Positions 3,655-52,775 of a stretch of DNA of 64,000 nucleotides are shown here, in pieces; position 1 is the stretch's first letter, and every line of letters starts with the position of its first letter. The DNA lies in the NCBI GenBank assembly GCA_001875345.1, contig MIZA01000012.1, positions 25,656 through 89,655 on the forward strand. The letters are read 5' to 3'. The translations under genes were made by a program, and so were the position numbers. A model generated the notes under the pieces. It was not told the origin of the DNA and searched no databases. It saw only the letters and a list, made by a program, of their open reading frames with translations. The stretch comes from Marine Group III euryarchaeote CG-Epi1 (GTDB taxonomy: Archaea > Thermoplasmatota > Poseidoniia > MGIII > CG-Epi1).

Positions 3655-4834
3655 AATCTAACCAAGGTACACGTTGGATCGGTTTTGCACCTTCACACAT
3701 CCCTTCTTTTACTATTGCATTAGGTAGAAGAGATTTCACTACGTCTTCGATTGTCTGATTTTTTGGTTTTTTACCAATTTCCAATTTCTCATTGTTAAGT
3801 ATTGCGTTCGGATATTTTTTTAGAAATTCAATTGCTCCGTCTTCCCAAGGAGCTGGGCCTTTGTGTGATACTATCTCAGGTAGTTTTCGCATTCCAGTTT
3901 CTACAACAATATAACCTTCGCTTCCCATATTTGCATTCCATGCAATTGGTTCAAAGTCATGAAGCGCTCGATATATTTTTCTTCCTTGCCTTTGTAACCA
4001 TGGCATTACAGTTTCTTCATTCTCTCCTGGAAGCGATAAAATAATACTTGTCAGATTTCCTTGAAACTCTCTTTCCTTATATTTAGGGAAAAAGAAATTA
4101 TGTGATGGCTTATCAAGGAACGATTTAGAAGCCAAGACTGCAGTTCCGAGTCCTTTCAAAGTTACTCCTGCAGCTACATTTCTTTTATTGTCTACAGGGT
4201 CACAAATCATTATTGGAGATTCAGGAGTTTCCATTTTATCAATAATAATTGGAGGTCTCCATTGGGACATTTCTTTTATTAGATTTAAGAATCCTCCATA
4301 TTTTATGCAAAGTATTTCTACTAAATAGCCTGAAAATCCACCTACTGCGGAATTTGCACCGTAGGCTCCGACAGCCTTTAGGAACTGTTTTGTCAATCTA
4401 ACTTCATTTTCTAACCCATTTATATTGGATATTACCCAATCAGTATGGAATGGTGTTCTGTCTACCGCAGATACAGATTGGGTAGAGTCTTCAATTGCAA
4501 AGCAAGGTACCAAATCTATTCCCACACCATCTATTTCTCCTCTCAAATAGGGGTGCTGTGCGTAGAGTTCTTTACCGTTGGGAAGTATTTTCTTTGCCAC
4601 AGCTAAGCCTTCTTTTTTCAAATCGGATCCTTTTTGAAATATTAAAAAAATATCAATGTCAGTTCCAGCCAGAAAAGTTCCTTTTGCTATTGATCCTACA
4701 ACTTTAGACTCAAAAGTTGACATTTCTAAAGCCTTTATCTTCTCAAGAATATTATCTCTTAAGTTTATAATTTTTTCTCTTTCTTCAAGTTTTGGTTGGA
4801 CTTGTTCTAAGGCTTCAGCTATTATTCCTTTCAC
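3653..4834 (-). CDS. cca: CCA-adding enzyme (archaeal class I tRNA nucleotidyltransferase)
   Basis: N-terminus ...LEQVQPKLEEREKI...VGSIAKGTFLAGTDIDIFLIF carries the class I nucleotidyltransferase G[ST] ... DxD motif. The length of about 390 aa and overall layout match archaeal CCA enzymes. Confidence 0.85.
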   Translation of the reverse strand: MKGIIAEALEQVQPKLEEREKIINLRDNILEKIKALEMSTFESKVVGSIAKGTFLAGTDIDIFLIFQKGSDLKKEGLAVAKKILPNGKELYAQHPYLRGEIDGVGIDLVPCFAIEDSTQSVSAVDRTPFHTDWVISNINGLENEVRLTKQFLKAVGAYGANSAVGGFSGYLVEILCIKYGGFLNLIKEMSQWRPPIIIDKMETPESPIMICDPVDNKRNVAAGVTLKGLGTAVLASKSFLDKPSHNFFFPKYKEREFQGNLTSIILSLPGENEETVMPWLQRQGRKIYRALHDFEPIAWNANMGSEGYIVVETGMRKLPEIVSHKGPAPWEDGAIEFLKKYPNAILNNEKLEIGKKPKNQTIEDVVKSLLPNAIVKEGMCEGAKPIQRVPWLD

Positions 4835-5334
4835 TCTTCTTCATCTGCATGGTTGACTTTACCTTTACGCCATGCTTTTGTTCTTTCCTTTTCAGCCCTT
4901 TTTCTTAATGTTTCAATATCATCTTTAACAGGAAGAAAGATAGGAATAATGAATATTATAAGTCCAAAAATTAATGCCAATATTCCCCATAATAAATATT
5001 TTCCAGTAGTTATAGCTTCTAAAAATAATGAGATAAGTATAAGAGATAAAATAGTAGAAATCCAAATTATTTTTCTGAAGGCCTTCTCAGATATTACATA
5101 TTTATCTTTTTCTTCCAATATCTCAACCGAGAATTCAGCGTTTGGTATTTCAATCTCCTCTTCGTTACTAACTGGTCTTTCAAGTTTTAATTTTCTTAAG
5201 TATAAATGACCTGCGATTCCAGATATTATGAAAGCAGCCTGCCCATAACCAGGATCACCAGCTGCAGTTGCAGCCCAAACGGCATACAACATTGTTAACC
5301 ATATTGTAACTATTATTGCGTTATACAAGTCCAT
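4831..5334 (-). CDS. Hypothetical membrane protein
   Basis: Four hydrophobic helices, an acidic loop and a K/R/E-rich tail. Its stop overlaps the cca start by 4 nt. No family was recognised. Confidence 0.45.
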   Translation of the reverse strand: MDLYNAIIVTIWLTMLYAVWAATAAGDPGYGQAAFIISGIAGHLYLRKLKLERPVSNEEEIEIPNAEFSVEILEEKDKYVISEKAFRKIIWISTILSLILISLFLEAITTGKYLLWGILALIFGLIIFIIPIFLPVKDDIETLRKRAEKERTKAWRKGKVNHADEEE

Positions 5335-5347
5335 GATTATCCGAGAT

Positions 5348-6337
5348 TTAGACTTTACTTTCCATAGTAATTGCCTCTACAGGACAGGCGAAAGCACAGA
5401 GAGTACAACCTACACAAGTATCATCTAAAATTAATGCTTTTTTGGATTCGAATTGCGAGGTTCTTGCTTTCAAGTCCCAAGATATCATATCAATTGATGC
5501 AAAATTACAGTAATAAACACATTGAGTACAACCTATGCATTTTTCGTTATCTACTAAAGCAATGTAATCTTTACCTTGAGGAAGAGATTTGAGAGTTATT
5601 TTTCTTAACTCTTTGAACATATCTTTAGCTTTTTCTATACCTGTTGTAGGTAATTCATCATCATCTACGGCTTCTTTAACTCTTTTAAGCCATTTATTAG
5701 GTTTATGAAAGAAAAGGGATGCAGTTCCCATTGCTTGATATGCTGAAGTTCCAGCACTTTCTTCAACAACAGTTTCAGCTTCAGTTTCTATTACAGCACC
5801 AGAGGCATAAGAGGCCATACTGTCAACTAAGTCAGCTTGAAATGTACCGTCACTGTCTACACAAGCTAGTTTTGACATTGCACCATTCATCCATTGCTCT
5901 GCAGGATCTTCAAAGTCAACGTCACAGTCAACCCTATCGTGTATTCTAGTGCCCCCCATAGCTTCCATGGTTTTATCCCAGTCCTTACCAGATTCACAAA
6001 ATAAATCGTAACCTGTATCTCCAAGTGCACAAATTGAAAAATGGGTGTTGGTTAATATTTTACCAACGCCGACTGCTGCTTCGTACAATTCTTCAGCATT
6101 GTCTGGCATTTCGCCTTCTCCCCAGGTAGAGCATACAATCATTACCCTAGACATTCCGGACATTGAATTAATATCAAAACCATCCATATCATGAACGGTA
6201 GGATTCAATCCGTATTTTTTACCTTCTTTTTGCCATTTTTCGGCAAGACCTTCGGAGTTTCCACTCTGGGATCCGTATAAAATGTGTAAATCTCTGTTCC
6301 CTTCTGTTGCGAATGTTGCAATGTCTACATCAGACAC
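5348..6337 (-). CDS. Flavodoxin (FMN) domain fused to a 2x[4Fe-4S] ferredoxin domain
   Basis: N-terminus ILYGSQSGNSEGLAEKW ... STWGEGEMPDNAEE is a CysJ/CPR-type FMN-binding flavodoxin signature. The C-terminus has CIGCTQCVYYC and CVGCTLCAFACP cluster motifs. It is the last redox gene of the Rieske/cytochrome b operon. Confidence 0.75.
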   Translation of the reverse strand: MSDVDIATFATEGNRDLHILYGSQSGNSEGLAEKWQKEGKKYGLNPTVHDMDGFDINSMSGMSRVMIVCSTWGEGEMPDNAEELYEAAVGVGKILTNTHFSICALGDTGYDLFCESGKDWDKTMEAMGGTRIHDRVDCDVDFEDPAEQWMNGAMSKLACVDSDGTFQADLVDSMASYASGAVIETEAETVVEESAGTSAYQAMGTASLFFHKPNKWLKRVKEAVDDDELPTTGIEKAKDMFKELRKITLKSLPQGKDYIALVDNEKCIGCTQCVYYCNFASIDMISWDLKARTSQFESKKALILDDTCVGCTLCAFACPVEAITMESKV

Positions 6338-7233
6338 TACTTTCCATCCTCCAGACAGGCAACCAAGAATTGCATTAAATCCATCATTTCATAATCATGA
6401 TGGTGCCCTTCTTCAGGATTCATGCGTTCTTCATTAAGCATACATTGCATATGCATGTAACATTTTGGACATCCTCCTAGCATAATATCAATGCCAGCAT
6501 CTGTACCCTGATCAAGTCTCTTTCTGCGTACAGCTTTAGTTGCGTCGTTGCAATACATCATTGATGATACTCCACAACACAGTGCCCTTTCTTTGTTATT
6601 CTCCAGTTCTACCATAGTTGCACCATCAACTAATTGTATCAAATCTCGAGGTGCTTCGTATTCACCCATCATTCTTCCAAGACGACAAGGGTCGTGATAA
6701 GAAACGGTCACATTTTCAGGAGCCTTAAACTTCAGTCCTCTACCCTGTAACGTTTGTGTAATATGTTCAACTTTTATCCCAAGCGTATTAGGTAAATCAT
6801 AGTCTACAGCAAAAGTGCGATAGCATTCAGCACATGAGCAAGTTAGAATCTTTATTCCGGATTCTTTTAATCGCCTCATATTATGCTCTTTTAAAGCATC
6901 ATAAACTTCCAAATTACCTTGCCATAACTGGTCATGGCCTGAACATTTGAATACATTCATATCCAGAACTAAAGGATCGATGTCTGCATAATTCAATAAT
7001 TTAATTGAAGCTGCAGCAATTGATGCGTGATCAGCATCTCCTTTGTTCAAGTGTGTAAATTTAACTTCAACATCCATAAAGTCGACACACCCAGGAAAAT
7101 ATCCATATTCATGATATCTTTCAGGTTTCCATTCATTTGACTCTTTGTTCATAGCATCATCTACAATCAGTCTTTCAAAAAGTGGATGAGGAATTGATCT
7201 TGCGTATGTTTTTTGTCTAGGTTTATCGCTCAT
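6337..7233 (-). CDS. Cysteine-rich CCG-domain protein (HdrB/GlpC/GlcF/SdhE-like, two CCG domains)
   Basis: First CCG domain is degenerate: PGC ... KCSGHD ... CSCAEC. Second is canonical: DPC ... ALCCGVSS ... GGCPKC. The start overlaps the upstream gene's end, and the stop abuts the flavodoxin gene start at 6337. Confidence 0.75.
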   Translation of the reverse strand: MSDKPRQKTYARSIPHPLFERLIVDDAMNKESNEWKPERYHEYGYFPGCVDFMDVEVKFTHLNKGDADHASIAAASIKLLNYADIDPLVLDMNVFKCSGHDQLWQGNLEVYDALKEHNMRRLKESGIKILTCSCAECYRTFAVDYDLPNTLGIKVEHITQTLQGRGLKFKAPENVTVSYHDPCRLGRMMGEYEAPRDLIQLVDGATMVELENNKERALCCGVSSMMYCNDATKAVRRKRLDQGTDAGIDIMLGGCPKCYMHMQCMLNEERMNPEEGHHHDYEMMDLMQFLVACLEDGK

Positions 7234-8359
7234 AAGCTACACCTCCTGCTGGAGTGCCTCCAACGCCAGGTATATCAAGAGCAGCACCTTCGGTAGAAGC
7301 TCCCAAGGTAGCTAGAAGTCTTTGTTCTAGCACATAATCTACATATTCGATATTCTGAGGGCATACTGCAGTACACATTCCACAAGAAATACATGACCAT
7401 AGAGCGACACCATCGTGTTTATTCTGGAATGTATTGAATATAATATTCAATTCATGTTCGCCTTCCATGTCTCTTACGGGACATATGTCATCACATAATC
7501 CACACTGATAACATCGATTTAATTTGAATTCATAAATACGTTGCATTCTTCTATCTTGAATACCTTTAGTGTAAAGATCAAATCTTTCTTCGTCACTTAG
7601 CGGTTTAGCACCTTCGGATCTTCTTCTGTCAAGGAACAGATAAGTTATCAGAGCGCAAGCAATAGGGCCCCACAAAGTAAGAGCATAGAGTAAGTCGGTT
7701 GTAACTTCAGGATAGTAAAGAGCTATATTTGCATTAATTGAAAAAACAGATAGCATAATTACCATTGCTATACCATAAACGCCGATTGCAGCTCTAACAG
7801 GATCTTCTATAGGTCTTCGTTCATGACCTCTATTAATTACATCTCCATATTGAGGATCAATAACTGCACCTAATGCCCTATCTATGAATGGAACTGCAAC
7901 AACTAGTCCAACAATAAGCCCTTGAACTAGAGTACCCCAAACTTTTGCACTCATCAAAAATAGTTCGATGTCGTCTAATCCTAGGAAAGGAATCATAGAG
8001 AGAGGTAGCCCTATTTTCAAATCAGTAGCAACCTTTAGACATCCAAAAGCCCACAACAAATACCAATCAGGTAGTGGAGGTGGATAGGCTGTACCGGCAG
8101 TAGGATCAGCAGACTCGTGTAATGGAGGTGGAACGAATGCTCCCAAATAAAACATAATTGATAGGACATAAAATGTGTAGACGGTATCTCTTGATAATTC
8201 GTGAGGATAAAGAGGCTCACCCTTTACCAGGCTTGCTTCTAGAACAGAGTGTTCTTCACGATTTTCTAGTTTTCTTATTGTATCAAGTTCTTGTTGTTCC
8301 TGTATAGATTCGCCTATCATTTCTGATGCATCATCTTCTAATATATTTTCTTCGCTCAT
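7223..8359 (-). CDS. Cytochrome b C-terminal half (subunit IV-like) fused to an HdrC-like 2x[4Fe-4S] domain
   Basis: PPPLPDWYLLWAFG is the Qo-site PEWY-type motif of the cytochrome b C-terminal domain. Several TM helices follow, then CYQCGLCDDICP and CISCGMCTAVCP dicluster motifs. Confidence 0.75.
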   Translation of the reverse strand: MSEENILEDDASEMIGESIQEQQELDTIRKLENREEHSVLEASLVKGEPLYPHELSRDTVYTFYVLSIMFYLGAFVPPPLHESADPTAGTAYPPPLPDWYLLWAFGCLKVATDLKIGLPLSMIPFLGLDDIELFLMSAKVWGTLVQGLIVGLVVAVPFIDRALGAVIDPQYGDVINRGHERRPIEDPVRAAIGVYGIAMVIMLSVFSINANIALYYPEVTTDLLYALTLWGPIACALITYLFLDRRRSEGAKPLSDEERFDLYTKGIQDRRMQRIYEFKLNRCYQCGLCDDICPVRDMEGEHELNIIFNTFQNKHDGVALWSCISCGMCTAVCPQNIEYVDYVLEQRLLATLGASTEGAALDIPGVGGTPAGGVAYER

Positions 8360-9312
8360 TAGTGAGGTTCAGCCTCCCCTTGGATCCATACTAACGCCAT
8401 ATGAATTATCATAAGAACTGTACCTACTAAAGGAAGTACAAAAATATGAAGCCAGTACATTCTTGTTACAGTATCTGCAGTAACTTGCGTTCCTCCAAAT
8501 ACGATTTGAGCCATTAATGGGCCCATTGCAGGGATAGAAGTAGCCATTTCAAGGCCAATTGCAGCAGCGGCATATCCGAGTGCATCCCATGGCAGTAGAT
8601 ATCCCGTGTAACCAAAGAAAATAGTTACAAGTAATAGTATAACTCCTAGAATCCAGTTAACTTCTCTCGGATTTCTGTAAGCACCTACAAAGTAAACTCT
8701 CATCATGTGTAAAAATACTGCTGCGACCATGAAGTGTGCAGCCCAATGATGTATAGCTCGCATTATGTATCCAAAAGCTACTTTTGTCATTATGAGTTCC
8801 ATAGATTGATACGATCCCGATGTGGCATGACCGTTTTCGTCAAAAGTTATTTCACCATCAGGTATATAGTAGAATCCAAGATAAATTCCAGTTATAACTA
8901 AGATTATATATGCAAAAAACGAAAGTCCTCCTAGCGAATAGAAAGGATACCAATACCAAACAGATTTTACATTGTACCTTTCAGTGTGGGATTGTGGCAT
9001 TGTCCTTCCACTTGAAGGTAAAAGTGTGAATACAACTGAATAATATTCTCGTTTGGCCAGAGAAGCATATCTGTGTAAAGCAAATCTTTCATCAAACCAG
9101 TTCCATGTTGCTAGCAATACTCGTGGAAGAGTTCCGGAAACATACAAGTACCCTACAGTCAGTACAGCCAATAATAACTGAAGGAAAATTAATGGGAAAG
9201 TATATTTCCTCATTAACTCTTCAATTATAGGTGTATCTCCAGCAGCACTGACAGGTAGTGCAAAGAAAGTAATACTTCCCAATAGTGCAGCCAAAAGTAG
9301 TCTTATTTTCAT
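8359..9312 (-). CDS. Cytochrome b N-terminal half (b6-like, bis-haem)
   Basis: HWAAHFMVAAVFLH (H-x13-H), HIFVLPLVGTVLMIIH (H-x14-H) and YTGYLLPWD are classic cytochrome b/b6 features. I place the start at the ATG at 9312-9310 (MKIRLLL...), which forms an ATGA overlap with the Rieske stop. The track ORF extends to 9336. Confidence 0.85.
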   Translation of the reverse strand: MKIRLLLAALLGSITFFALPVSAAGDTPIIEELMRKYTFPLIFLQLLLAVLTVGYLYVSGTLPRVLLATWNWFDERFALHRYASLAKREYYSVVFTLLPSSGRTMPQSHTERYNVKSVWYWYPFYSLGGLSFFAYIILVITGIYLGFYYIPDGEITFDENGHATSGSYQSMELIMTKVAFGYIMRAIHHWAAHFMVAAVFLHMMRVYFVGAYRNPREVNWILGVILLLVTIFFGYTGYLLPWDALGYAAAAIGLEMATSIPAMGPLMAQIVFGGTQVTADTVTRMYWLHIFVLPLVGTVLMIIHMALVWIQGEAEPH

Positions 9313-9995
9313 CCTTGTCCGCAATACTTGAGCCATTCGATTTGAGTCATTAGCCCAACTAAACCTCCATCTTTTTCTTCTATAGGTACCACAGGAAGAC
9401 CATAAGGAGCTGGTCCTTCTAATAATTCGGCAGCCATAACTTCACGACCTTGTTCATCTACGTTTTTGATAACTGAGAGTGGATCAAATAACGATAAATG
9501 ACATGGACATAAGAACATATTTTCGTAATCATTTCCACTGATAGTACTTGTCCCTTCCGCGCTAAAAACAGGTTTACAGCACAAGTGAGGGCATTTGTAT
9601 GTGTGGTACGCCATTAGATATGCATTACCATCATCTACACTTACTCCCAGACCATTCATAGATGGCTCAGCAGGTACTTTGGCCAAGGCTAACTGTATCT
9701 CACAAGCTCCCAACTCTTGTTCTAAATCTTTTGGAGCCCAATCGACAATTGCTACATCCCAAAGATTAAAATCTTCTTTTTTAGCGACACTTCCACCCAT
9801 GTTTTCATACCATTTCCCGCTTTCAGATTTATAAGTTAAGGTCTCGTGGGCATCATCATCGTTACACCTAGTAACTGGCGGTGGAAGCAATGTTTTTAGT
9901 GCAGGAACTGCAAGAGCAGTGGTCATTCCAGCTCCAGCTAATCCTATTGCACCCTGTAAGAATCCTCTTCGAGTTATATTCATTTTATCTTTCAA
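9309..9995 (-). CDS. Rieske [2Fe-2S] protein with a Tat signal
   Basis: Twin-arginine TRRGFLQGAIGLAGAG. Cluster boxes are CPHLCC (C-x-H-x-x-C, with Cys in place of the usual Gly) and CPCHLSLFD (C-x-C-H). Confidence 0.85.
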   Translation of the reverse strand: MKDKMNITRRGFLQGAIGLAGAGMTTALAVPALKTLLPPPVTRCNDDDAHETLTYKSESGKWYENMGGSVAKKEDFNLWDVAIVDWAPKDLEQELGACEIQLALAKVPAEPSMNGLGVSVDDGNAYLMAYHTYKCPHLCCKPVFSAEGTSTISGNDYENMFLCPCHLSLFDPLSVIKNVDEQGREVMAAELLEGPAPYGLPVVPIEEKDGGLVGLMTQIEWLKYCGQG

Positions 9996-10194
9996 GTTTT
10001 GTTATAACTTTACTCCTCCTCTTCTTTAGCTCTAAAACATCAGGCAAAAACGATCTTCTATAGAAATCAATCATTAATCCCATTATCATAAATGCCATAG
10101 CTAGTGTAAATGAAAGGAATTGTTGATCCCATCCTTCCAATATTCCATATATAAATAATGAATCATACATTATTTCAAGAACTAATAAAATCAA
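9985..10194 (-). CDS. Small two-helix membrane protein; 5' end unresolved because the frame stays open upstream to 10368
   Basis: The track ORF starts at a TTG at 10194. My translation of the same frame upstream gives ...ITEVNDLLEKIAKGEITPEDAQKLLGTYKDEDLGKVVRETPGKEQGEIFAIV with no ATG, GTG or TTG. Its end overlaps the Rieske start by 11 nt. Confidence 0.4.
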   Translation of the reverse strand: MILLVLEIMYDSLFIYGILEGWDQQFLSFTLAMAFMIMGLMIDFYRRSFLPDVLELKKRRSKVITKLER

Positions 10195-10336
10195 AACAAT
10201 AGCAAATATTTCACCTTGTTCTTTACCTGGAGTTTCACGTACTACTTTTCCTAGATCTTCATCTTTGTATGTTCCTAATAGTTTCTGTGCATCTTCTGGA
10301 GTAATTTCTCCTTTGGCTATTTTTTCGAGTAAATCG

Positions 10337-11032
10337 TTAACCTCGGTAATGTGAACTACCTCCTCTAATTACGACGTATGCTAATAATATCATAACAAAT
10401 ACCACTGCTATTGCCAGCAAGGCAATCCAGTACTGCATTAAACTTACGCCCAATTCATGTATTGAAGCTTCTTCAGAGACTACTTGGGGAGTCCCTATTG
10501 ATACTGAAGAAATATATCCCCATTGATCTCCATTCGTTCCAACTCCATTTACTACATTATAATATATTGTGAATAAAGCATCTCCAGCACCCTCACTTGG
10601 TGCAGTCCATTGAAAAGTCCAATTTCGTTGTGCATTACTATCTGCATTATGAGAAATATATTTTCCACCTTCACCTATCCAGTAAAGTGCGCCAGTTTGG
10701 AATGCCCCTTCACTAACTTCAGCTAAGAACCCTCCATAGCGGATGGCTTCAGGATCTGAAATTACATTTGTATCATTAATTACAAGAGAAATATTGTACG
10801 TTGTATCGGGAACATATTTGGAAGGAATGCCGTCGAGCATATACATGCCTTCATCTAGTTGTTCATCCATGTGGCATGAACAGCCATTAGCAATGCTGTC
10901 TTTTGCCCAATCTTCTCCAGCACCTTGCTGATCACCTCCTGCAGGGTAACCGTTAACACTCATGCCGACAGACATGACTGTAATCAATAAGATTGCAAGT
11001 AGTGCGTAAGTTCCTTTTTGATTCGTAGCCAA
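10337..11032 (-). CDS. Membrane-anchored extracytoplasmic protein with a conserved-looking C-x-C-H motif (function unknown)
   Basis: Has an N-terminal signal or anchor helix, NGCSCHMD near the N-terminus, a beta-rich body (NWTFQWTAPSEGAG) and a C-terminal TM helix with a basic tail. It is the first gene of the Rieske/cytochrome b gene string. Confidence 0.55.
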   Translation of the reverse strand: MATNQKGTYALLAILLITVMSVGMSVNGYPAGGDQQGAGEDWAKDSIANGCSCHMDEQLDEGMYMLDGIPSKYVPDTTYNISLVINDTNVISDPEAIRYGGFLAEVSEGAFQTGALYWIGEGGKYISHNADSNAQRNWTFQWTAPSEGAGDALFTIYYNVVNGVGTNGDQWGYISSVSIGTPQVVSEEASIHELGVSLMQYWIALLAIAVVFVMILLAYVVIRGGSSHYRG

Positions 11033-36602: not shown

Positions 36603-38855
36603 ATGTCGGATTTTGGTGTGATTCGTAATTATTATTCTCAAATGCCTGAGAAGATAGAGCAGGCTAGACACATCTTGAAGCGTTCGATGACATTAACAGA
36701 AAAGATTCTTTTTAGTCATTTAGTTAAAATTGAAAAGGAGCCAAAGAGAACAAAGTCGTATGTTGAATTACAGCCAGATAGAGTGGCAATGCAAGATGCT
36801 ACAGCTCAAATGGCATTACTTCAGTTCGCTCTAACAGGGCGTTCGGAAGTTGCAGTCCCTTCAACAGTCCATTGCGATCATTTGATTCAAGCGAGAGTAG
36901 GAAAAGAAAAAGATTTGGAATATGCCAATGAAATAAGCTCAGAAGTCTTTTCTTTCTTGAAATCAGCTTCAGCAAAATATGGTCTTGGTTTTTGGAAGCC
37001 AGGAGCTGGTATTATCCACCAAGTTGTTCTTGAGAATTATGCATTCCCTGGCGGAATGATGATTGGTACAGACTCCCATACACCAAATGCGGGAGGTCTA
37101 GGGATGGTTGCAATAGGTGTAGGAGGAGCCGATGCTATGGAAGTCATGGCAGATTTACCTTTTACAATTAAATGGCCAGGAATTATTGGAGTTCATTTAA
37201 CTGGTGAACTATCTGGTTGGGCTTCCGCTAAAGATGTTATCTTGAAAGTTTGTGAAGAATTAACCGTTAAAGGAGGTACAGGCCACATTGTAGAATATTT
37301 TGGCCCGGGAGCCTCTACAATATCTTCAACAGGTAAAGGTACAATTTGTAATATGGGTGCTGAAGTTGGAGCTACGACTTCACTTTTCCCTTATGATAGT
37401 TCTATGGATGATTATCTTAGAGCAACAAATAGATCAGAGGTTGCAGATATGGCTAAAGATTTTTCTGAATATCTAGTTCCAGATGCAGAAGTTGAGGCTA
37501 ATCCTTCGCAGTACTATGATAGAATTATTGAAATTAATTTATCTGAATTAGTTCCGGCAATAGTTGGTCCGCATACTCCGGATTTAGCAAGACCAGTATC
37601 TGAATTAGGAGATGAAGCTAGAGAGAACGGTTGGCCAACTGATATTCAAGCAGCTTTGATTGGCTCTTGTACGAATTCTTCCTACGAAGATATGGAGAGG
37701 GCATCTTCAATTGCACAACAGGCTAAAAATGCAGGTCTAAAATCAAAAGTTCAGTTTATGGTTACACCAGGTTCAGATACTATTGATAATACTATTAGAA
37801 GAGACGGTCAAATGCAAATATTTGATGATATCGGAGGAACTGTATTGGCAAATGCATGCGGGCCATGTATTGGTCAATGGAAAAGAGACGATATTGATAG
37901 TGGAGATGTGAATTCTATTGTTTCTTCTTACAACCGTAATTTTAGTGGCAGAAATGATGGCAATCATCAAACATTATCTTTCCTTACAAGTCCAGAAATA
38001 GTTACAGCTATGGCAATTGCAGGTAGCTTAGATTTCAATCCCATTACAGACAAGTTAACAGCAGAAGACGGTAGTGAATTTTTACTTGATCCTCCAGAGG
38101 GCGATCAATTGCCTGAAAACGGCTTTTTATTTAATCTAGAAGGATTTATACCACCTCCAAAAGGATTGGATTCAGTTGATTTAGATGTATCTTCTGATAG
38201 TAGAAGATTACAATTATTGGAGCCATTTGTAGCAACCACCAAGGAGGATTTGGAAGATTTGCCGATTTTAGTTAAAGTCAAGGGTAAGTGTACTACAGAT
38301 CACATTTCTCCAGCAGGAATTTGGTTACAATTTAGGGGTCACTTGGATAATATTTCAGACAATTGTTACATTGGAGCGCATAATTCCTTCACAGAAGAGC
38401 AAGGTACTGCAATCAACCAGCTAGATGGCAATAAGGGAAAAATTCCAAAGGTTGCACGTAATTATTATGAAAATGATCAGCCGTGGGCAGTTATAGCAGA
38501 TGTCAATTACGGTGAAGGAAGTAGCAGAGAACATGCAGCCATGTCTCCTAGATTTTTAGGATGTAAGGTTGTCATTGCAAGAAGTATGGCACGTATTGCA
38601 GAGACTAATCTGAAGAAACAAGGAGTTTTACCTTTAATTTTTGCAGATGAGTCTTCTTGGGATTTATTGAGAGTAGATGATAGATTAACCATCAAAGGAA
38701 CTGATGAACTAGGTCCAAACTCTCAAATTACTGTAGAAGCAAAGCACAGCGATGGAACTATGGATACTTTCGTTTGTAATCACAGTATGGATGAACTTCA
38801 AGTTGAATGGTTTAAATCAGGTTCAGCTTTGAATTTTTTAAGATCGCAGAATTAA
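36603..38855 (+). CDS. acnA: Aconitate hydratase (about 750 aa, mitochondrial-type length)
   Basis: ...QPDRVAMQDATAQMA..., GTDSHTPNAGGLG, CTNSSYEDM, ANACGPCIGQW and YGEGSSREHAA are the three Fe-S Cys ligands and aconitase signatures. Confidence 0.9.
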   Translation: MSDFGVIRNYYSQMPEKIEQARHILKRSMTLTEKILFSHLVKIEKEPKRTKSYVELQPDRVAMQDATAQMALLQFALTGRSEVAVPSTVHCDHLIQARVGKEKDLEYANEISSEVFSFLKSASAKYGLGFWKPGAGIIHQVVLENYAFPGGMMIGTDSHTPNAGGLGMVAIGVGGADAMEVMADLPFTIKWPGIIGVHLTGELSGWASAKDVILKVCEELTVKGGTGHIVEYFGPGASTISSTGKGTICNMGAEVGATTSLFPYDSSMDDYLRATNRSEVADMAKDFSEYLVPDAEVEANPSQYYDRIIEINLSELVPAIVGPHTPDLARPVSELGDEARENGWPTDIQAALIGSCTNSSYEDMERASSIAQQAKNAGLKSKVQFMVTPGSDTIDNTIRRDGQMQIFDDIGGTVLANACGPCIGQWKRDDIDSGDVNSIVSSYNRNFSGRNDGNHQTLSFLTSPEIVTAMAIAGSLDFNPITDKLTAEDGSEFLLDPPEGDQLPENGFLFNLEGFIPPPKGLDSVDLDVSSDSRRLQLLEPFVATTKEDLEDLPILVKVKGKCTTDHISPAGIWLQFRGHLDNISDNCYIGAHNSFTEEQGTAINQLDGNKGKIPKVARNYYENDQPWAVIADVNYGEGSSREHAAMSPRFLGCKVVIARSMARIAETNLKKQGVLPLIFADESSWDLLRVDDRLTIKGTDELGPNSQITVEAKHSDGTMDTFVCNHSMDELQVEWFKSGSALNFLRSQN

Positions 38856-47518: not shown

Positions 47519-48637
47519 ATGGTAGAAATTTACATTATATTGAGTTTGGTGATTGGAATAGGCATAGGCTATGCTATTGCAAATAAAAATAATAATTCAA
47601 ATGATGACGGTATTGACTCTATCAAAAAGGAAATGGAAAATACATTCAAAGCTTTAGCTTTGGATGTTAATAAATCAAATACTGAAGAATTTTTTAAGCT
47701 AGCAAATGATAAATTTCAAGGACTAAGTAAAGAATCAGATACGAATTTAGAGAATAAGAAAAAACTAATTGACGAGAATCTAAATGAAATGTCTAAAAGG
47801 TTGAAGTCCATAGAAGATGCTTCAATCAAGCTTAATGAAAATTTAGAATCCACTAATACTCAAACCAAGGATTTGACAAAGACAACAATCAAACTACGTG
47901 AGATATTATCTTCGTCACAAAAGCGAGGACAATGGGGAGAGAGAATTGTTGAGGATATTCTCAATGTTATAGGACTTATGGAAGGTGTAAATTATACTAA
48001 GCAAGGAGTTGTAGAATCAGGTGAACGACCTGATTTCACTTTTAAGCTACCGAAAGAAAAAATAATTAACATGGATGTAAAGTTTCCTTTAGCTCACTAC
48101 GAGAGATATATTGATTCAGACGATGAACAAATTCGTAATTCTGAGAAAAGTGCATTTCTAAGAGACGTTAAGAAGCATGTTAAAGATATAACAAAACGTA
48201 GCTATATTGATCCTTCATCAGGAACTTTAGATTACGTATTGATGTTGGTTCCAAATGAATCAATTTATTCTTTTATTAATAAGGAAGATAGTGCCGTTAT
48301 CGATTTTGCTTTAGAAAATAAAGTTCTTCTTTGTTCACCCCTTACTCTTTATGCGATTCTTTCCTTGATCCATCAAGCAACAAGAAATTTTGCCATGGAA
48401 GAAAAAGCTACAGAAGTTATGAGTTTGCTCAATACTTTCCGTCTGCAATGGTCAAAGTATGTAGAGGCTATGGATAAAATGGGAAGAAGAATTGATGACG
48501 CAAAAAAAGAATTTACTAGCCTAGTCAGCACGCGCACTAATCAATTACAGAAGCCCCTTAACAAAATAGATGACATTACTAATTTAGTCGAAGATACTAA
48601 TCAAGTCACTAAACTAGAAGGTCAACAGAAGTTCTAA
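47519..48637 (+). CDS. rmuC: DNA recombination protein RmuC
   Basis: N-terminal TM helix, a coiled coil, then RGQWGERIVEDIL...RPDFTFKLP...INMDVKFPL...VLMLVPNESIY, which is the RmuC nuclease-like core. Confidence 0.8.
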   Translation: MVEIYIILSLVIGIGIGYAIANKNNNSNDDGIDSIKKEMENTFKALALDVNKSNTEEFFKLANDKFQGLSKESDTNLENKKKLIDENLNEMSKRLKSIEDASIKLNENLESTNTQTKDLTKTTIKLREILSSSQKRGQWGERIVEDILNVIGLMEGVNYTKQGVVESGERPDFTFKLPKEKIINMDVKFPLAHYERYIDSDDEQIRNSEKSAFLRDVKKHVKDITKRSYIDPSSGTLDYVLMLVPNESIYSFINKEDSAVIDFALENKVLLCSPLTLYAILSLIHQATRNFAMEEKATEVMSLLNTFRLQWSKYVEAMDKMGRRIDDAKKEFTSLVSTRTNQLQKPLNKIDDITNLVEDTNQVTKLEGQQKF

Positions 48638-50046
48638 AGGTCTTTCAGAGAAGAAACTAGTTCTGTCATCATCTGTTTACCGTCTCCAAAGAGCATCATT
48701 GTCTTATCCTCGTAGAACAGGTCATTGTCTACTCCAGCGTATCCTACAGATAACGATCTTTTTACCATGATGACAACTCTTGCTTTATCGGCGTCAATTA
48801 TAGGCATTCCAGCTAAAGGACCTTCTCCACTTCTTGCAGCAGGGTTAACTGTATCATTTGCACCAACGACAATTGCAACATCACATTCACCCATTTCAGA
48901 GTTGATATCATCCATTTCAATCAGCTTCTCGTAAGGAACACTTGCTTCAGCTAATAGGACATTCATATGGCCTGGCATTCTTCCTGCAACAGGATGGATT
49001 CCATATTTTACTTCACAGCCATTTGCCTCTAAAATGTCAGCAAATTCACGAACTTGGTGTTGGCATTGTGATACAGCCATTCCGTATCCTGGAATAATAA
49101 CACATTTAGAAATTCCATCGCATACCATTGCCACTTCCTCAGGATCCGATCCAACTTTAGTCCTAGTAACTTGTTCTTTATCAGAGCCTCCAAATGATTT
49201 GAATAATACATCAATTAATTGACGATTCATTGCCTTACACATTATATTTGTTAAAATCAAACCAGCAGCCCCTACCATTGATCCTGCAATTATCAAAACA
49301 TTATTTCCGATAATGAATCCAGTGAATGCTGCGGCTATGCCAGATAAAGAGTTTAGCAGACTTACTACAACAGGCATATCAGCACCTCCGATAGGAAGTA
49401 CGAATAAAATTCCAAGAATAGATGATAGTGCAATAATAGCTATTACATAATCTTGATTTCCAGGTTCCTCAATGGTCATGTATAGGAGACCTACGATTGA
49501 AATTAAGACTAACCCTTTAACGTAGTTTAGCCATTCAGGACCCCACGTTGGAGTTCTGTACCAGGTTCCAAATATTTCGACTCCACCTTTTAATTTCATC
49601 ATGGCGAGCAAGCTCCCTGTTAGAGTTACCCAGCCAACTAAAGCAGACAAGCCAATTGCAGTCCAGGCAACATGTAATTCTAACCCTTCAGGCAAATCGT
49701 TCTCATTAATCCTTCTGAAAACTTCCGATGCTGCTACTAATGCACTTGCAGCACCTCCAAATCCATTGAACAAAGCAACCATTTCTGGCATTCCTGTCAT
49801 CTGTACTCTAATTGCCATTAGATATCCAATGAATCCTCCGATAACAAGTCCTGAGATTATAAGAATAAAATTATTGGTTTCACCAAAGTCCATTTGAGCT
49901 ATTGTAACTACTACAGCTACTAGCATTCCCATTGCACCATACAAATTTCCGGTTGGCGCAGTTCTAGGATGACCTAATTTCTTTAAACCCATTATGAAAA
50001 GTATTGAGGCTACAAGATATCCTATGTCCCAAACAGCTTCGTCCAT
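48634..50046 (-). CDS. pntB: NAD(P) transhydrogenase subunit beta
   Basis: Multi-TM N-half plus a C-terminal NADP(H) domain (IIPGYGMAVSQCQH..., GANDTVNPAA). Confidence 0.9.
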   Translation of the reverse strand: MDEAVWDIGYLVASILFIMGLKKLGHPRTAPTGNLYGAMGMLVAVVVTIAQMDFGETNNFILIISGLVIGGFIGYLMAIRVQMTGMPEMVALFNGFGGAASALVAASEVFRRINENDLPEGLELHVAWTAIGLSALVGWVTLTGSLLAMMKLKGGVEIFGTWYRTPTWGPEWLNYVKGLVLISIVGLLYMTIEEPGNQDYVIAIIALSSILGILFVLPIGGADMPVVVSLLNSLSGIAAAFTGFIIGNNVLIIAGSMVGAAGLILTNIMCKAMNRQLIDVLFKSFGGSDKEQVTRTKVGSDPEEVAMVCDGISKCVIIPGYGMAVSQCQHQVREFADILEANGCEVKYGIHPVAGRMPGHMNVLLAEASVPYEKLIEMDDINSEMGECDVAIVVGANDTVNPAARSGEGPLAGMPIIDADKARVVIMVKRSLSVGYAGVDNDLFYEDKTMMLFGDGKQMMTELVSSLKDL

Positions 50047-50354
50047 TACTTGCCCCCTCTTTTGCCAGCAATCATGTTTAACATTCGGTTAGTTACTGCA
50101 AATCCTCCAACTACGTTAATTGTAGCCAAAATAAGTGCAAAAAACGCTAGCCATGCTGCAACACCAGGATCTCCCCCGTTGAAGTCAGTATTTGAAAAAA
50201 TCAAAGCTCCTACAATTGTTATTCCAGAAATTGCATTAGCTCCTGACATTAATGGAGTATGAAGTGTAGCAGGTACTTTTGTAATTAGTTCAAATCCAAG
50301 AAAAATAGCCAATATAAAAACGGTAATTGCGCCTATAAGTGTGACTAATTCCAT
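50046..50354 (-). CDS. pntA: NAD(P) transhydrogenase subunit alpha, part 2 (membrane part)
   Basis: 102-aa three-helix protein with LHTPLMSGANAISGI. It sits between the alpha-1 and beta genes and shares boundary bases with both. Confidence 0.85.
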   Translation of the reverse strand: MELVTLIGAITVFILAIFLGFELITKVPATLHTPLMSGANAISGITIVGALIFSNTDFNGGDPGVAAWLAFFALILATINVVGGFAVTNRMLNMIAGKRGGK

Positions 50355-51529
50355 TATTTCATAGCCTCCATTAGTTTAGTATGGTTATCGTGTACTTTCC
50401 CGTCCTCAGCAATTAAAATTCCACCATAACCTGCTGAAATTCCACCTTCATCTCCGGTGAGAACTTGTTCTTCTTGATTTATAGCTAACTTACCTTCGTC
50501 AACTAAAACAGTTACAAAGTTGGTAACGTTATTTGAATATAGCATTGATGCAGTATTTGGAACGGTTCTACATAGCATAGGTATTCCTACAATTGTTACT
50601 CCATCTTTTTCAATTATTTCCCCCTCTTTACTTCCAACAATATTACCACCAGTATCTGTATTCATATCAACAATTACAGACCCTTCTTTCATTTCTTTTG
50701 TCATCTTATCATTGTTTTCTTTACTGAAGAATAGTTTAGGTGCATCTGCACCGAATAATCTAGCAGTAGTAATTACAACATCAGCGTCTTTTACAGCATC
50801 CATTAATGCATTATCAAATGCTTCTTGAAGACTTTTATCTGTAAAAAGAGAAGCATGTCCACTTGAGCTTTCAGCGTCCTTCCAACCAGGTACGTCGATA
50901 AATTTAGCACCTAAACTTTCAGTATCTTGCTTAGCAGCTAATCTAACATCTATAGCTTGCACTGCAGCTCCTAATCTCTTTGCAGTTGCTATTGCTTGAA
51001 GGCCAGCTACAGCAGCCCCTTGAATTATGAACTTTGCAGGCCTCACAGTTCCGGCAGATGTCATCATCATAGGAACCATTTTCGCAATATTTTGAGATCC
51101 CATTAAAGCTGCTTTGTATCCTGATAAATTGTCTTGACTTGAGTTCACATCCATTGATTGGCCTTTTGATAGTCTTCTTGGAATGACTTCCAGAGATAGC
51201 AGAGTAATTCCAGAATCAATTATTTGCTTTGTTTGTTCTAGATTTCTAAAAGGATCAGCCATGCATGCTAACATTTGACCTTTTTCCATATTCTTAAAGT
51301 TTGGAACATCAATTGAAGCAATTAATTCACATTTCATTACTTCATCCAATGATTTAGTTTTTGCACCTTTTTCTTCGTATTCAGCATCAGAGTATCCTGA
51401 TTTTTCTCCAGCACCTTTTTCAATTACTACTTCAAAACCTAATTTCATTAGTTTAGGTATTGAAATTGGCACAATAGCTACACGAGTTTCTTTCTCGTTG
51501 TTCTCTTTTGGTATTCCTATGCGCATCAT
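50354..51529 (-). CDS. pntA: NAD(P) transhydrogenase subunit alpha, part 1 (NAD(H)-binding domain, AlaDH/PNT family)
   Basis: MRIGIPKENNEKETRVA... and IIQGAAVAGLQAIATAKRLGA Rossmann motif. Confidence 0.9.
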   Translation of the reverse strand: MMRIGIPKENNEKETRVAIVPISIPKLMKLGFEVVIEKGAGEKSGYSDAEYEEKGAKTKSLDEVMKCELIASIDVPNFKNMEKGQMLACMADPFRNLEQTKQIIDSGITLLSLEVIPRRLSKGQSMDVNSSQDNLSGYKAALMGSQNIAKMVPMMMTSAGTVRPAKFIIQGAAVAGLQAIATAKRLGAAVQAIDVRLAAKQDTESLGAKFIDVPGWKDAESSSGHASLFTDKSLQEAFDNALMDAVKDADVVITTARLFGADAPKLFFSKENNDKMTKEMKEGSVIVDMNTDTGGNIVGSKEGEIIEKDGVTIVGIPMLCRTVPNTASMLYSNNVTNFVTVLVDEGKLAINQEEQVLTGDEGGISAGYGGILIAEDGKVHDNHTKLMEAMK

Positions 51530-51605: not shown

Positions 51606-52775
51606 TCACTTTCCAATTTCACGAGCAATTACTAATCTTTGGACTTCTTGAGTTCCTTCATAAATTTGAGTGATTTTTGCATCACGGAAAAATCTTTCTA
51701 CAGGGAAATCTTTTGTGTATCCATACCCGCCTAATACCTGTACAGCTCTTTCTGAAACCCACATTGCAGTATCGCCTGCACTTAGCTTTGCAATTGAAGC
51801 TTCAAGTGTATGGCGCGATGATCCATTTTCATAATGTTCTTGTTTAGCCCATGCAGCTTTGTAAACTTGTAATCTTGCAGCATCAATTCTAACAGCCATA
51901 TCTGCCAGATAATTACTTATTGATTGGTGAGCGGCTATTGGTTTACCGAAAGTTTCCCGTTCTTTTGAATATTTCAGTGCAGCTTCGTATGCTCCCTGTG
52001 CAATACCAAGTCCTTGAGCAGCTATACCTATTCTTGAATTATCTAACGCATTCATTGCAATTGGAAACCCTTTGCCTACATCTCCAAGAACGTTTGCTTT
52101 TGGTACTTTACATTCATTTAGAATTAATGTACATGTATCACTTGAACGGATTCCTAGCTTGTCTTCTTTCTTTCCAATTTCAAATCCTTCAAACCCTTTT
52201 TCAATTATAAAACAAGTCACTCCTCCGTGACTCTTTTTTCCGTAATCAGGGTGATCAGTTACTTTAGCAAATAGAACGAAGAGATCTGCAGTAGTTCCGT
52301 TTGTAACCCACATTTTTTCACCATTCAAAGTATAGTGTTCTCCATCATCTGTAGCTCTTGCTACCATTGCAGCAGCATCTGTGCCCGAACCGGCTTCACT
52401 CAAAGAATATGCACCTAAGAATTCTCCAGAGGCTAATTTTGGTAAATATTTTTCTTTTTGTTCTTCATTTCCACTCAGTGCTATTGTCATCGAGCAAAGT
52501 CCGACATGGACTGCTATCATGACTCCTAAAGACGGATCGACTCTTGACAATTCTTCGACAACAATTGCCTCTGAAATATCATCTAATTTCTGACCGCCAT
52601 ATTTTTCAGGTATGGTCATTCCTGCAAATCCTAGTTCTGCGAATTTTTTGAATTCCTCAATAGGTGCAATTTGTTCCTTATCTCTCTTGTTACAAGTAGG
52701 CCCAGCAACATCTTCAGCAAATTCACGTACCATTCCGCGAATCATTTTTTGGTCTTCGGTTTCTGCAAAATCCAT
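51606..52775 (-). CDS. Acyl-CoA dehydrogenase
   Basis: ...GAYSLSEAGSGTDAA..., WVTNG, QVLGGYGYTKDFPVERFFRDAKITQIYEGT.EVQ. Confidence 0.9.
   Translation of the reverse strand: MDFAETEDQKMIRGMVREFAEDVAGPTCNKRDKEQIAPIEEFKKFAELGFAGMTIPEKYGGQKLDDISEAIVVEELSRVDPSLGVMIAVHVGLCSMTIALSGNEEQKEKYLPKLASGEFLGAYSLSEAGSGTDAAAMVARATDDGEHYTLNGEKMWVTNGTTADLFVLFAKVTDHPDYGKKSHGGVTCFIIEKGFEGFEIGKKEDKLGIRSSDTCTLILNECKVPKANVLGDVGKGFPIAMNALDNSRIGIAAQGLGIAQGAYEAALKYSKERETFGKPIAAHQSISNYLADMAVRIDAARLQVYKAAWAKQEHYENGSSRHTLEASIAKLSAGDTAMWVSERAVQVLGGYGYTKDFPVERFFRDAKITQIYEGTQEVQRLVIAREIGK

Follow-up and report, generated by a model that had tools for sequence, protein, structure and literature searches.

A predicted cytochrome b subunit IV fused to an HdrD/EtfD-type iron-sulfur domain in the Rieske/cytochrome b operon of Marine Group III euryarchaeotes

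Soluble low-potential partners that exchange electrons with the n-side haem or the Qi site of a Rieske/cytochrome b complex are a familiar idea. In ferredoxin-dependent cyclic flow, the partner binds the n-side of the b6f complex transiently and acts via haem cn, and anammox Rieske/cytochrome b complexes carry extra NAD(P)-linked iron-sulfur flavoprotein subunits, unrelated to HdrD/EtfD. This report concerns a gene of Marine Group III (MGIII, class Poseidoniia) that encodes a predicted cytochrome b subunit IV and a two-[4Fe-4S] domain in one polypeptide. It lies at nucleotides (nt) 7223-8359 (minus strand) of a 64,000-nt stretch from the euryarchaeote CG-Epi1 (GenBank assembly GCA_001875345.1, contig MIZA01000012.1, positions 25,656 to 89,655), referred to below as the window. 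Its iron-sulfur module, unlike the partner in b6f cyclic flow, is attached covalently, and there is no haem cn. The window has a G+C content of ~37%, its genes are archaeal throughout (e.g., TFB, an aRF1-like protein, archaeal pilus ATPases, and geranylgeranyl reductase), and its nearest relatives are MGIII metagenome-assembled genomes (MAGs) and single-cell genomes.

The best solved relatives of the iron-sulfur module are EtfD and EMO, the ETF:(methyl)menaquinone oxidoreductases (ETF, electron-transferring flavoprotein), in which clusters wire a cytoplasmic flavoprotein to haem b and quinone. Cryo-electron microscopy of EtfD revealed a wire composed of a linear [3Fe-4S] cluster (D1), a non-cubane [4Fe-4S] cluster (D2), two cubanes (D3 and D4), a haem b at ~7 Å and menaquinone, along which β-oxidation electrons pass from ETF to the quinone pool (PMC13083937). 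D1 is linear since Thr stands for the second Cys of the CCG motif, and His583 completes D2, so that the clusters are non-catalytic and shielded (PMC13083937). A 2026 preprint on the Syntrophus EMO places the docking site of ETF on the non-cubane clusters, of which the proximal alone is conserved while the distal is variable.

Parts of the system have been described before. Diamond et al. (2022; PMC9038741) reported, in two sentences, hdrD-like and rnfB-like genes beside complex III in Ca. Angelarchaeales and suggested ferredoxin entry at complex III from gene proximity. Tully (2019; PMC6336850) described an 'MGII-specific complex III' and an orphan RnfB in Marine Group II (MGII). Both loci are almost certainly the same system as the MGIII operon, although these accounts are confined to proximity and contain neither the subunit IV-iron-sulfur fusion, nor the triple fusions, the EtfD-type cluster pattern, or the flavodoxin/ferredoxin swap. 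No description of the fusion itself was found in the searchable literature, which excluded subscription journals, and an EtfD/EMO-type module on a bc-type cytochrome does not appear in a survey of non-cubane-cluster enzymes. Hundreds of database copies of the fusion carry generic names, such as '4Fe-4S dicluster domain-containing protein', 'heterodisulfide reductase-related iron-sulfur binding cluster', 'PreA subunit', and occasionally 'cytochrome b(C-terminal)/b6'.

Architecture and integrity of the fusion gene

The fusion gene and the parts of its product are as follows.

7223-8359, minus strand: fusion protein; open reading frame (ORF) with ATG start, 378 amino acids
8225-8359, minus strand: acidic N-terminal helix (residues 1-45; 14 D/E against 3 K/R)
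7610-8224, minus strand: cytochrome b C-terminal/subunit IV-like domain; four transmembrane (TM) segments corresponding to helices E-H
8060-8071, minus strand: PDWY Qo-site motif (equivalent of PEWY) in the E-F loop; residues 97-100 of PDWYLLWAFG (97-106)
7535-7609, minus strand: basic linker
7319-7534, minus strand: predicted two-[4Fe-4S] domain of HdrC/EtfD type
7478-7513, minus strand: first CxxCxxCxxxCP motif, CYQCGLCDDICP, residues 283-294 (C283, C286, C289, C293)
7358-7393, minus strand: second CxxCxxCxxxCP motif, CISCGMCTAVCP, residues 323-334 (C323, C326, C329, C333)
7226-7318, minus strand: C-terminal tail

The product of this gene is very probably the subunit IV (helices E-H) of a Rieske/cytochrome b complex of the split, b6 type. 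The features noted earlier in a sequence-only reading of this DNA, namely an acidic N-terminus, PDWYLLWAFG, TM helices, and a Cys-rich tail, are all present in the translation, which contains four hydrophobic segments (residues 59-77, 135-168, 187-216, and 223-244). That reading had also assigned the membrane half to the cytochrome b C-terminal domain, and profile and fold comparisons bear it out. The NCBIfam model bc1_QcrB_actin aligned residues 45-226 with model positions 233-397 of 458 (E 4.9e-8), a match far below the whole-protein cut-off since only the C-terminal half aligns. In searches of the PDB, the single sequence reached QcrB with phmmer (E 2.7e-4), and a 20-member family profile reached the C-terminal half of bc1 cytochrome b (E 3.7e-14) and b6f subunit IV (E 6.7e-12). 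A Pfam scan of the window protein reported Fer4 families only and not PF00032. This family was matched by 16 of the 20 aligned relatives (best E 9.7e-13), and precomputed annotations list it for many others. An AlphaFold2 (AF2) model based on a 39-sequence alignment had a mean predicted local distance difference test score (pLDDT) of 60.7; it was good in the TM part, usable for the TM fold only, and placed helices at residues 52-75, 138-167, 187-215, and 221-251. Foldseek returned five matches to this model at E<1e-3, all of them actinobacterial QcrB chains, with TM-scores that were low (0.3), as the query was a lone subunit of moderate model quality.

The resemblance to b6f subunit IV (PetD) and to the C-terminal half of bc1 cytochrome b (PF00032) thus comprises the PDWY Qo motif in the E-F loop, helices E-G(H), and the profile and fold matches; as in split complexes of this class, the gene lies directly 3' of genes for a b6-like subunit with four haem-ligand His residues and a Rieske protein. 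It differs from b6f subunit IV in the acidic 45-residue N-terminal helix and in a fourth helix, H, that returns the C-terminus to the n-side and bears the two-[4Fe-4S] domain. The MGIII operon also lacks a cytochrome c1 or f gene, and the b6-like subunit lacks the haem cn cysteine. The eight Cys residues, the two Pro residues that follow them, and P97-D98-W99 were invariant in both fusion-family alignments (39 sequences, down to 30% identity, and 20 sequences), and Y100 was invariant in the smaller and nearly invariant in the larger. Because these residues are conserved in alignments reaching down to 30% identity, the ORF is, by its pattern of conservation, a conserved gene and not a chance ORF.

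The same reading had asked whether a mis-joined frame at about nt 7500-7650, i.e., two genes connected through a frameshift or a chimeric contig, could account for the fusion. The sole weak point that would favor such an artefact is the detection by Pfam of just Fer4 domains in the window protein. A search with the fusion protein yielded 128 homologues at 60-99% identity, and all full-length ones had Fer4 domains; the few shorter ones look like fragments, two of which have no Pfam domains on record. The ORF was present in 39 MGIII loci from many independent assemblies and studies, including single-cell genomes, and recurred in hundreds of metagenome contigs. In loci L001-L006, from six different studies, residues 1-378 aligned as one segment at 93-98% identity, and most remaining MGIII loci, from MAGs and single-cell genomes, gave a one-segment match over about residues 8-356. 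Five loci end at a contig edge; apart from these, the 39 loci contain one ORF, with no stop or frameshift to split it. The junction of the TM and iron-sulfur regions (residues ~237-286) is intact, its sequence is conserved across the family, and distant lineages have the same fusion. The independent assemblies therefore refute an assembly or annotation artefact, the probability of which is negligible.

In canonical cytochrome b, helix E begins on the n-side and PEWY lies on the p-side, so that after four helices (E-H) the C-terminus is back at the n-side. The distribution of basic residues in the fusion protein follows a corresponding gradient: 11 K/R in the 38 residues after helix H, three in the 18-residue F-G loop, two in the 57-residue PDWY loop, and none in the G-H loop. 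Lineage-specific insertions elsewhere in the family add even numbers of TM segments by a hydropathy count that is crude for the long forms and was relied on just for the basic form (three after PDWY) and the MGII form (five). By these topology rules, i.e., four TM helices after an n-side N-terminus, the positive-inside rule, and even-numbered TM insertions, the iron-sulfur domain is predicted to be cytoplasmic, like the partner CCG and flavodoxin/ferredoxin proteins, in which no signal peptides were found. The first Cys motif begins ~10 residues past the end of helix H in most family members. Subunit IV proteins without the iron-sulfur domain have a C-terminal Y-x-Y-x-L-N-R-R-Y-Y-R motif, which aligns with YEFKLNRCYQCG at the start of the iron-sulfur domain.

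The HdrD/EtfD-type module and its distribution

The gene that follows the fusion gene is central to the identity of the iron-sulfur domain.

6337-7233, minus strand: CCG (non-cubane cluster) protein, the HdrB-like half of an HdrD/EtfD-type module; Pfam CCG E 2.5e-16, C-terminal half of TfrB E 3.1e-24

In the fusion tail, Pfam detected Fer4_8 (E 3.8e-10) and Fer4_17 (E 7.8e-7), and residues 278-350 matched HdrC (7bkb_C) at E 1.3e-5 as a single sequence and at 4.7e-11 with the family profile. The two CxxCxxCxxxCP motifs, between which lies an insert of ~30 residues, form a predicted two-cubane site. The description of the tail as an HdrC-like two-cluster domain thus holds as far as the dicluster is concerned, but the name HdrC fits the domain less well than a description as cubane half of a module of the HdrD/EtfD (EMO) type. 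The first 11 nt of the CCG gene lie within the fusion gene. The CCG protein, usually the best conserved of the operon, has an identity of 91-98% in most MGIII clades and of 77-82% in the deepest ones. Judged by their sequences, the fusion tail and the CCG protein are the two parts of a split HdrD-type module, because triple fusions of subunit IV, Fer4, and CCG domains exist and soluble Fer4+CCG relatives are annotated as HdrD.

The top PDB match of the family profile was 9ojn_A (E 4.7e-41), which agrees with Mycobacterium smegmatis EtfD (Rv0338c homologue) in its length, the order of its domains, and the numbering of its cysteines; the CCG protein aligned with the same chain at E 3.1e-14. At the distal motif, C97-S98 of the CCG protein stands opposite C538-T539, the linear [3Fe-4S] site of EtfD, and C134-A-E136-C137 stands opposite C581-P-H583-C584, which places E136 at the His583 position. 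C183, C219, C220, C255, and C258 stand opposite the D2 ligands, so that all five proximal-cluster Cys residues are conserved. In terms of the complete Cx(n)CCGx(m)CxxC pattern, CCG domain 1 of the window protein is incomplete (K-C97-S98-G) and domain 2 is complete. By analogy with EtfD, C283, C286, and C289 together with C333 of the fusion protein would bind the membrane-proximal cubane, D4. Because the CCG protein aligns with EtfD ligand by ligand, lacks the second distal Cys, and keeps the five proximal ones, the Fer4+CCG module resembles the electron wires of EtfD and EMO more than a catalytic site for disulfides. A catalytic heterodisulfide reductase function was considered for the window CCG protein and assigned a low probability on account of its EtfD-like distal motif. 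Among 35 fused relatives, 34 have CAEC, and the distal motif is CCG in 31, CVG in two, CTG in one, and CSG in one; this variation agrees with the reported variability of the distal cluster in EMO/EtfD.

The MGIII module shares with EtfD the order of membrane domain, two cubanes, and two CCG clusters, and a distal CCG motif without the second Cys (C-S-G in the window, C-T-G in EtfD). It differs in the Glu that occupies the position of the extra His ligand and, from EtfD and EMO alike, in being split over two genes and accompanied by an RnfB-like ferredoxin/flavodoxin subunit. Furthermore, the EtfD/EMO proteins possess their own NarI/HdrE-like membrane domain with one to three haems, whereas the MGIII module is attached to subunit IV of a Rieske/cytochrome b complex, the haems of which reside on a separate subunit. 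As its membrane domain is not of the NarI/HdrE haem type, the fusion protein is classed here, from its domain composition, as neither EtfD nor HdrDE proper and is a new combination of modules.

Related comparisons can be made with the heterodisulfide reductases and with the Qmo and Dsr complexes. The cubane domain matches HdrC and the CCG protein HdrB, the layout of a b-type cytochrome with HdrD is shared with HdrDE, and soluble proteins annotated as HdrD are 30-37% identical to fused relatives of the fusion protein. Unlike HdrDE, however, the window protein has an incomplete distal CCG motif and a bc-type cytochrome with a Qo site and Rieske partner, and coenzyme M/coenzyme B metabolism is not part of these aerobic heterotrophs. 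QmoC and DsrMK also join an HdrC-like dicluster domain to a membrane b-type cytochrome, in one polypeptide or one complex, and a weak NCBIfam match to QmoC was obtained (E 9.4e-5); several fusion relatives are moreover paired with HdrA-like and MvhD-like proteins, as in Qmo. In QmoC, by contrast, the iron-sulfur domain is N-terminal to a NarI-like cytochrome, with no Rieske protein and no Qo site, and Qmo and DsrMK serve sulfate reduction.

A database search for proteins carrying both a cytochrome b C-terminal domain and a Fer4 dicluster, as had been suggested from the sequence, uncovered a wide family in Thermoplasmatota, including MGII and MGIII, plus a Geothermarchaeales MAG. All 35 fused proteins that were checked contain PDWY. 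In many Thermoplasmata, a single polypeptide of 540-700 amino acids comprises subunit IV, the Fer4 dicluster, and two CCG domains (e.g., locus L041, 5854-7695; protein P0294, of 598 amino acids, with an 876-amino-acid cytochrome b partner), and the Geothermarchaeales MAG, outside Thermoplasmatota, has a triple fusion as well. In MGII (Poseidoniales/Poseidoniaceae), the triple fusion is 930-964 amino acids long and contains an outer-face insertion between two additional TM segments (one protein cluster of this form has 635 members); it is followed only by a 110-amino-acid Fer4_21 protein, which is probably the orphan 'RnfB' of Tully. In soil and groundwater Thermoplasmata, subunit IV with approximately four extra TM segments is fused to Fer4, and the CCG and rnfB-like genes are separate; the soil locus contains genes for a blue-copper protein, DUF7318, Rieske, cytochrome b, the subunit IV-Fer4 fusion, CCG, and rnfB-like proteins. 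Forms of 445-458 amino acids (P0126-P0131) were considered as MGII proteins and rejected, their hosts being soil and groundwater Thermoplasmata. One MAG labelled Halobacteria has subunit IV and Fer4 only. An alignment scan of genome contigs with the PDWY pattern found mostly ordinary bacterial cytochromes b, and among the best 80 of 308 none reaches the iron-sulfur region. Two contigs that carry the MGIII operon, with protein identities of 94% and 87%, NZTZ01000011.1 (L005) and CAXGWP010000033.1 (L010), are deposited in bins named 'Chloroflexota bacterium' and 'uncultured Nitrosomonadaceae bacterium'; mis-binning of archaeal contigs is the most likely reason.

The existence of relatives that encode subunit IV, Fer4, and CCG domains as one polypeptide ties the CCG gene to the complex. 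The sequence-only reading had taken the fusion as evidence that both the CCG and flavodoxin genes belong there; this view is strengthened by the triple fusions and by the conserved operon order, with the refinement that the flavodoxin domain is not a fixed part of the last protein, being swapped for a ferredoxin domain in other MGIII lineages. Partner genes in other lineages encode HdrA-like flavoproteins, Fer4+FlpD (MvhD-like) proteins, HdrC and HdrB, FrhB, and a second HdrD-like protein followed by a GcvH-like one. From this variety, the fused iron-sulfur domain looks like a general adaptor that would connect the low-potential chain of cytochrome b to varied cytoplasmic redox modules. In some lineages, with L154 (3707-9710; Geothermarchaeales) and L055 (7566-12012) as the loci concerned, FrhB-like, HdrA-like (~1000 amino acids), FlpD/MvhD, HdrC, HdrB, second HdrD-like, and GcvH-like genes come after the cytochrome b-HdrD fusion. 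Such HdrA-type operons would join a flavin-based bifurcation module to a Rieske/cytochrome b complex. At two MGII loci (L151, 11625-12854; L152, 6155-7384), a gene for a GshA-type glutamate-cysteine ligase lies on the opposite strand two genes past the operon, by chance or as a hint of a thiol link.

The operon and its partner genes

The operon consists of seven minus-strand genes in a row, from 10337-11032 to 5348-6337, of which those from DUF7318 through the flavodoxin gene overlap successively by 1-28 nt. The 39 MGIII loci preserve its order, including a gene for a 167-amino-acid membrane protein at 4831-5334, up to the limits of their contigs. The genes other than those for the fusion and CCG proteins are the following.

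10337-11032, minus strand: Reeler-like 'choice-of-anchor V' membrane-anchored protein; NCBIfam choice_anch_V E 1.5e-18
9985-10194, minus strand: DUF7318 small protein with two TM segments, conserved first gene of these Rieske/cytochrome b operons; Pfam DUF7318 E 2.9e-11
9309-9995, minus strand: Rieske iron-sulfur protein with twin-arginine signal and CPHLCC and CPCH boxes; TIGR01416 Rieske_proteo E 2.6e-8
8359-9336, minus strand: cytochrome b6-like N-terminal subunit (helices A-D, haems bL and bH); Pfam Cytochrome_B E 5.5e-38
5348-6337, minus strand: flavodoxin (flavin mononucleotide) domain, ~100-amino-acid linker, and RnfB-like two-[4Fe-4S] domain; Flavodoxin_1 E 7.5e-27, Fer4_21 E 3e-14
4831-5334, minus strand: conserved 167-amino-acid membrane protein 3' of the operon, with hydrophobic segments and a conserved basic C-terminus, KDDIETLRKRAEKERTKAWRKGK; no informative Pfam family

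The b6-like subunit matched chloroplast cytochrome b6 in the PDB at E 3.6e-40, with all haem-ligand His residues (H196, H210, H297, and H312) aligned. It has Ser at the position of the haem-cn Cys35 and no cysteine anywhere, and an N-terminal extension of 130 amino acids (8947-9336, minus strand) contributes two extra TM segments. Other Thermoplasmata (L041, 3234-5849; L155, 3343-5973) have ~600 residues of outer-face Big_5/Ig-like or cupredoxin domains at the position of this extension, fused to cytochrome b. The Rieske gene overlaps both of its neighbors, and the DUF7318 family precedes Rieske in MGII, Geothermarchaeales, and Thermoplasmata loci as well. The true start of DUF7318 is probably further upstream than listed, to judge from the reading frame. 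The frame is open for 58 codons above the listed TTG start (10195-10371, minus strand), a stretch that overlaps the end of the Reeler-like gene; the peptide encoded there, ITEVNDLLEKIAKGEITPEDAQKLL, is conserved. The upstream start is GTG in many relatives; the window and its closest relatives have GTA GTT there, without ATG, GTG, or TTG.

The last gene of the operon overlaps the CCG gene by 1 nt and encodes a CysJ/MioC-like flavodoxin domain and a C-terminal RnfB/PreA-like Fer4_21 domain. In about half of the MGIII loci, including that of the Bathy1 MAG, a Fer4 dicluster domain takes the place of flavodoxin, and the linker and C-terminal domain are retained (L013, 5140-5985; L017, 7913-8764; L033, 7949-8800). 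From these comparisons, the flavodoxin domain is a variable add-on and the RnfB-like dicluster the conserved part of the protein. Interchange of flavodoxin and ferredoxin on a tether is as expected for a carrier domain moving back and forth between the complex and enzymes of the cytoplasm. The swap is possibly an iron-sparing adaptation.

At the other end of the operon, the Reeler-like gene is syntenic in MGIII loci that reach far enough upstream. Its product has hydrophobic segments at the N- and C-terminus and invariant C51-x-C53-H54, H128, and H192 residues; its AF2 model (pLDDT 70) had F-spondin Reeler domains as top Foldseek matches, a fold that yields no cofactor. At the corresponding position, other lineages encode a plastocyanin-like/blue-copper protein (L105, 4474-5118) or a cytochrome c (L045, 3086-3937; L055, 3666-4391), and in L046 (3241-5880) cytochrome b itself carries fused cupredoxin domains. 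From its position, the Reeler-like protein may be the outer-face (p-side) redox partner of the complex, and the 167-amino-acid membrane protein may be a further subunit.

Direction of electron transfer through the complex

In the proposed mechanism, the tethered flavodoxin or ferredoxin, charged by 2-oxoacid:ferredoxin oxidoreductases, would hand low-potential electrons to the CCG clusters, and ETF could possibly dock on the CCG protein, as in EtfD/EMO. The electrons would pass from the CCG clusters through the cubanes and haem bH to quinone at Qi, and the resulting quinol would be oxidised at Qo of the same complex, via Rieske, with an outer-face acceptor as the recipient. Complex III would then serve additionally as the site where electrons of ferredoxin or flavodoxin, and perhaps of ETF, enter the quinone pool, comparable to ferredoxin-driven cyclic flow through b6f but hard-wired. 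The window also encodes a PntAB transhydrogenase (48634-51529, minus strand), an acyl-CoA dehydrogenase (51606-52775, minus strand), and an aconitase (36603-38855, plus strand), which fit an aerobic heterotroph oxidising both fatty acids and amino acids and bear on the ETF idea.

Electron-transfer contact between the cubane pair and haem bH or the Qi pocket is likely by analogy, because the first cluster motif comes after helix H, just as its EtfD counterpart comes after the membrane domain; the EtfD cluster lies ~7 Å from haem b. For the direction of flow, inward transfer into the quinone pool is given about an even chance. It is favored because EtfD and EMO, the closest characterised homologues, pass ETF electrons along the same cluster chain to haem b and menaquinone, because the distal cluster site is of the non-catalytic type, because an aerobic heterotroph needs sinks for reduced ferredoxin and ETF, and because HdrC clusters in HdrABC sit on the branch from flavin to the terminal acceptor. 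Several observations weigh against contact or against inward flow. The iron-sulfur domain of the AF2 model has a pLDDT of 30-48, the MGIII proteins have ~25 extra residues between helix H and the first cluster motif relative to other members, and the membrane partner is bc-type, unlike the NarI/HdrE-type domain of EtfD, so that EtfD geometry may not transfer. The putative Qi-site residues are only partly conserved: R57-D58, ahead of helix E, corresponds in a by-eye alignment to the K-D of bc1 Qi sites and is found in most family members but is missing in some. In addition, 31 of the 35 fused relatives have a complete set of CCG/CCG cysteines, which is compatible with disulfide chemistry, and the related HdrDE, DsrMK, and Qmo complexes send electrons outward from quinol.

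That outward direction is the basis of a different scheme, in which bifurcation at Qo would send one electron through bL and bH into the iron-sulfur wire and on to a cytoplasmic acceptor in place of Qi quinone. The acceptor could be a disulfide at the CCG clusters, the tethered flavodoxin/ferredoxin, or, in other lineages, HdrA modules, and the complex would be a quinol-driven source of low-potential reductant or thiols. It is well established that HdrDE, DsrMK, and QmoABC carry electrons from quinol or methanophenazine to cytoplasmic acceptors, and both QmoC and HdrC matched the fusion protein; the motifs complete in both CCG domains of most fused relatives, the pairing of the fusion with HdrA-like, MvhD/FlpD, HdrBC, or FrhB genes in some lineages, and the GshA gene near the MGII operon also speak for electron exit. 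Yet the distal CCG motif of the window is of the EtfD-type non-catalytic kind, and Glu replaces the EtfD His ligand in 34 of the 35 fused relatives. Transfer from the p-side to the n-side opposes the membrane potential, the potentials of flavodoxin and ferredoxin are well below that expected of bH, and an aerobic heterotroph is expected to make reduced ferredoxin catabolically and would need a sink rather than a source. Electron exit is accordingly considered rather unlikely. A further possibility is that subunit IV merely tethers an HdrD/EtfD-like enzyme that acts on quinone directly, as proposed for SdhE and GlpC, or on a substrate of its own, with no contact to the b haems. Direct access to quinone has been proposed, in archaeal succinate dehydrogenase and GlpC, for CCG proteins that lack a haem domain, the AF2 model of the iron-sulfur domain is too poor to place the clusters relative to bH, and one MAG (L045) has the subunit IV-Fer4 fusion without an adjacent CCG gene. 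However, the fusion partner in every locus examined is subunit IV of a complete DUF7318-Rieske-cytochrome b operon and never a generic anchor, the order of membrane domain and first cubane motif is that of EtfD, in which the cluster contacts haem b, and the even number of inserted TM segments, by the crude hydropathy count, keeps the domain at the n-side face of cytochrome b. A pure anchor is therefore improbable.

Extended to the family, the inward scheme leads to a tentative proposal, held with somewhat less confidence than inward flow itself: the main respiratory complex III of Poseidoniia and many other Thermoplasmatota may be a composite in which a cytochrome b-fused wire of the EtfD/HdrD type feeds electrons from ferredoxin, flavodoxin, or ETF to bH/Qi, so that a Q cycle fed by ferredoxin would be hard-wired into the complex. 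In lineages with HdrA, MvhD, FrhB, or HdrBC partners, flavin-based and quinone-based bifurcation might be combined in one complex.

MGII and MGIII rank among the most abundant archaea of the plankton, and what is known of their respiratory chain comes from gene lists alone. Published oddities, i.e., cytochrome b and Rieske without a canonical complex III and an orphan RnfB, would be explained as one complex with a concrete architecture. For the modular HdrD/EtfD/EMO family, the first structures of which date from 2025-2026, the Rieske/cytochrome b complex would be a new membrane partner. The complex would also offer a natural, covalently wired model for the long-debated question of whether, and by what route, soluble donors of the ferredoxin type feed the n-side of a b6f-like complex and, if the proposal is true, would alter how electrons from ferredoxin, and possibly from β-oxidation, are budgeted in metabolic models of these archaea. 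The fusion concerns a core respiratory enzyme of very abundant ocean archaea and makes it possible to test, in a hard-wired system, the delivery of electrons by soluble carriers to the n-side of a Rieske/cytochrome b complex, or their withdrawal from it.

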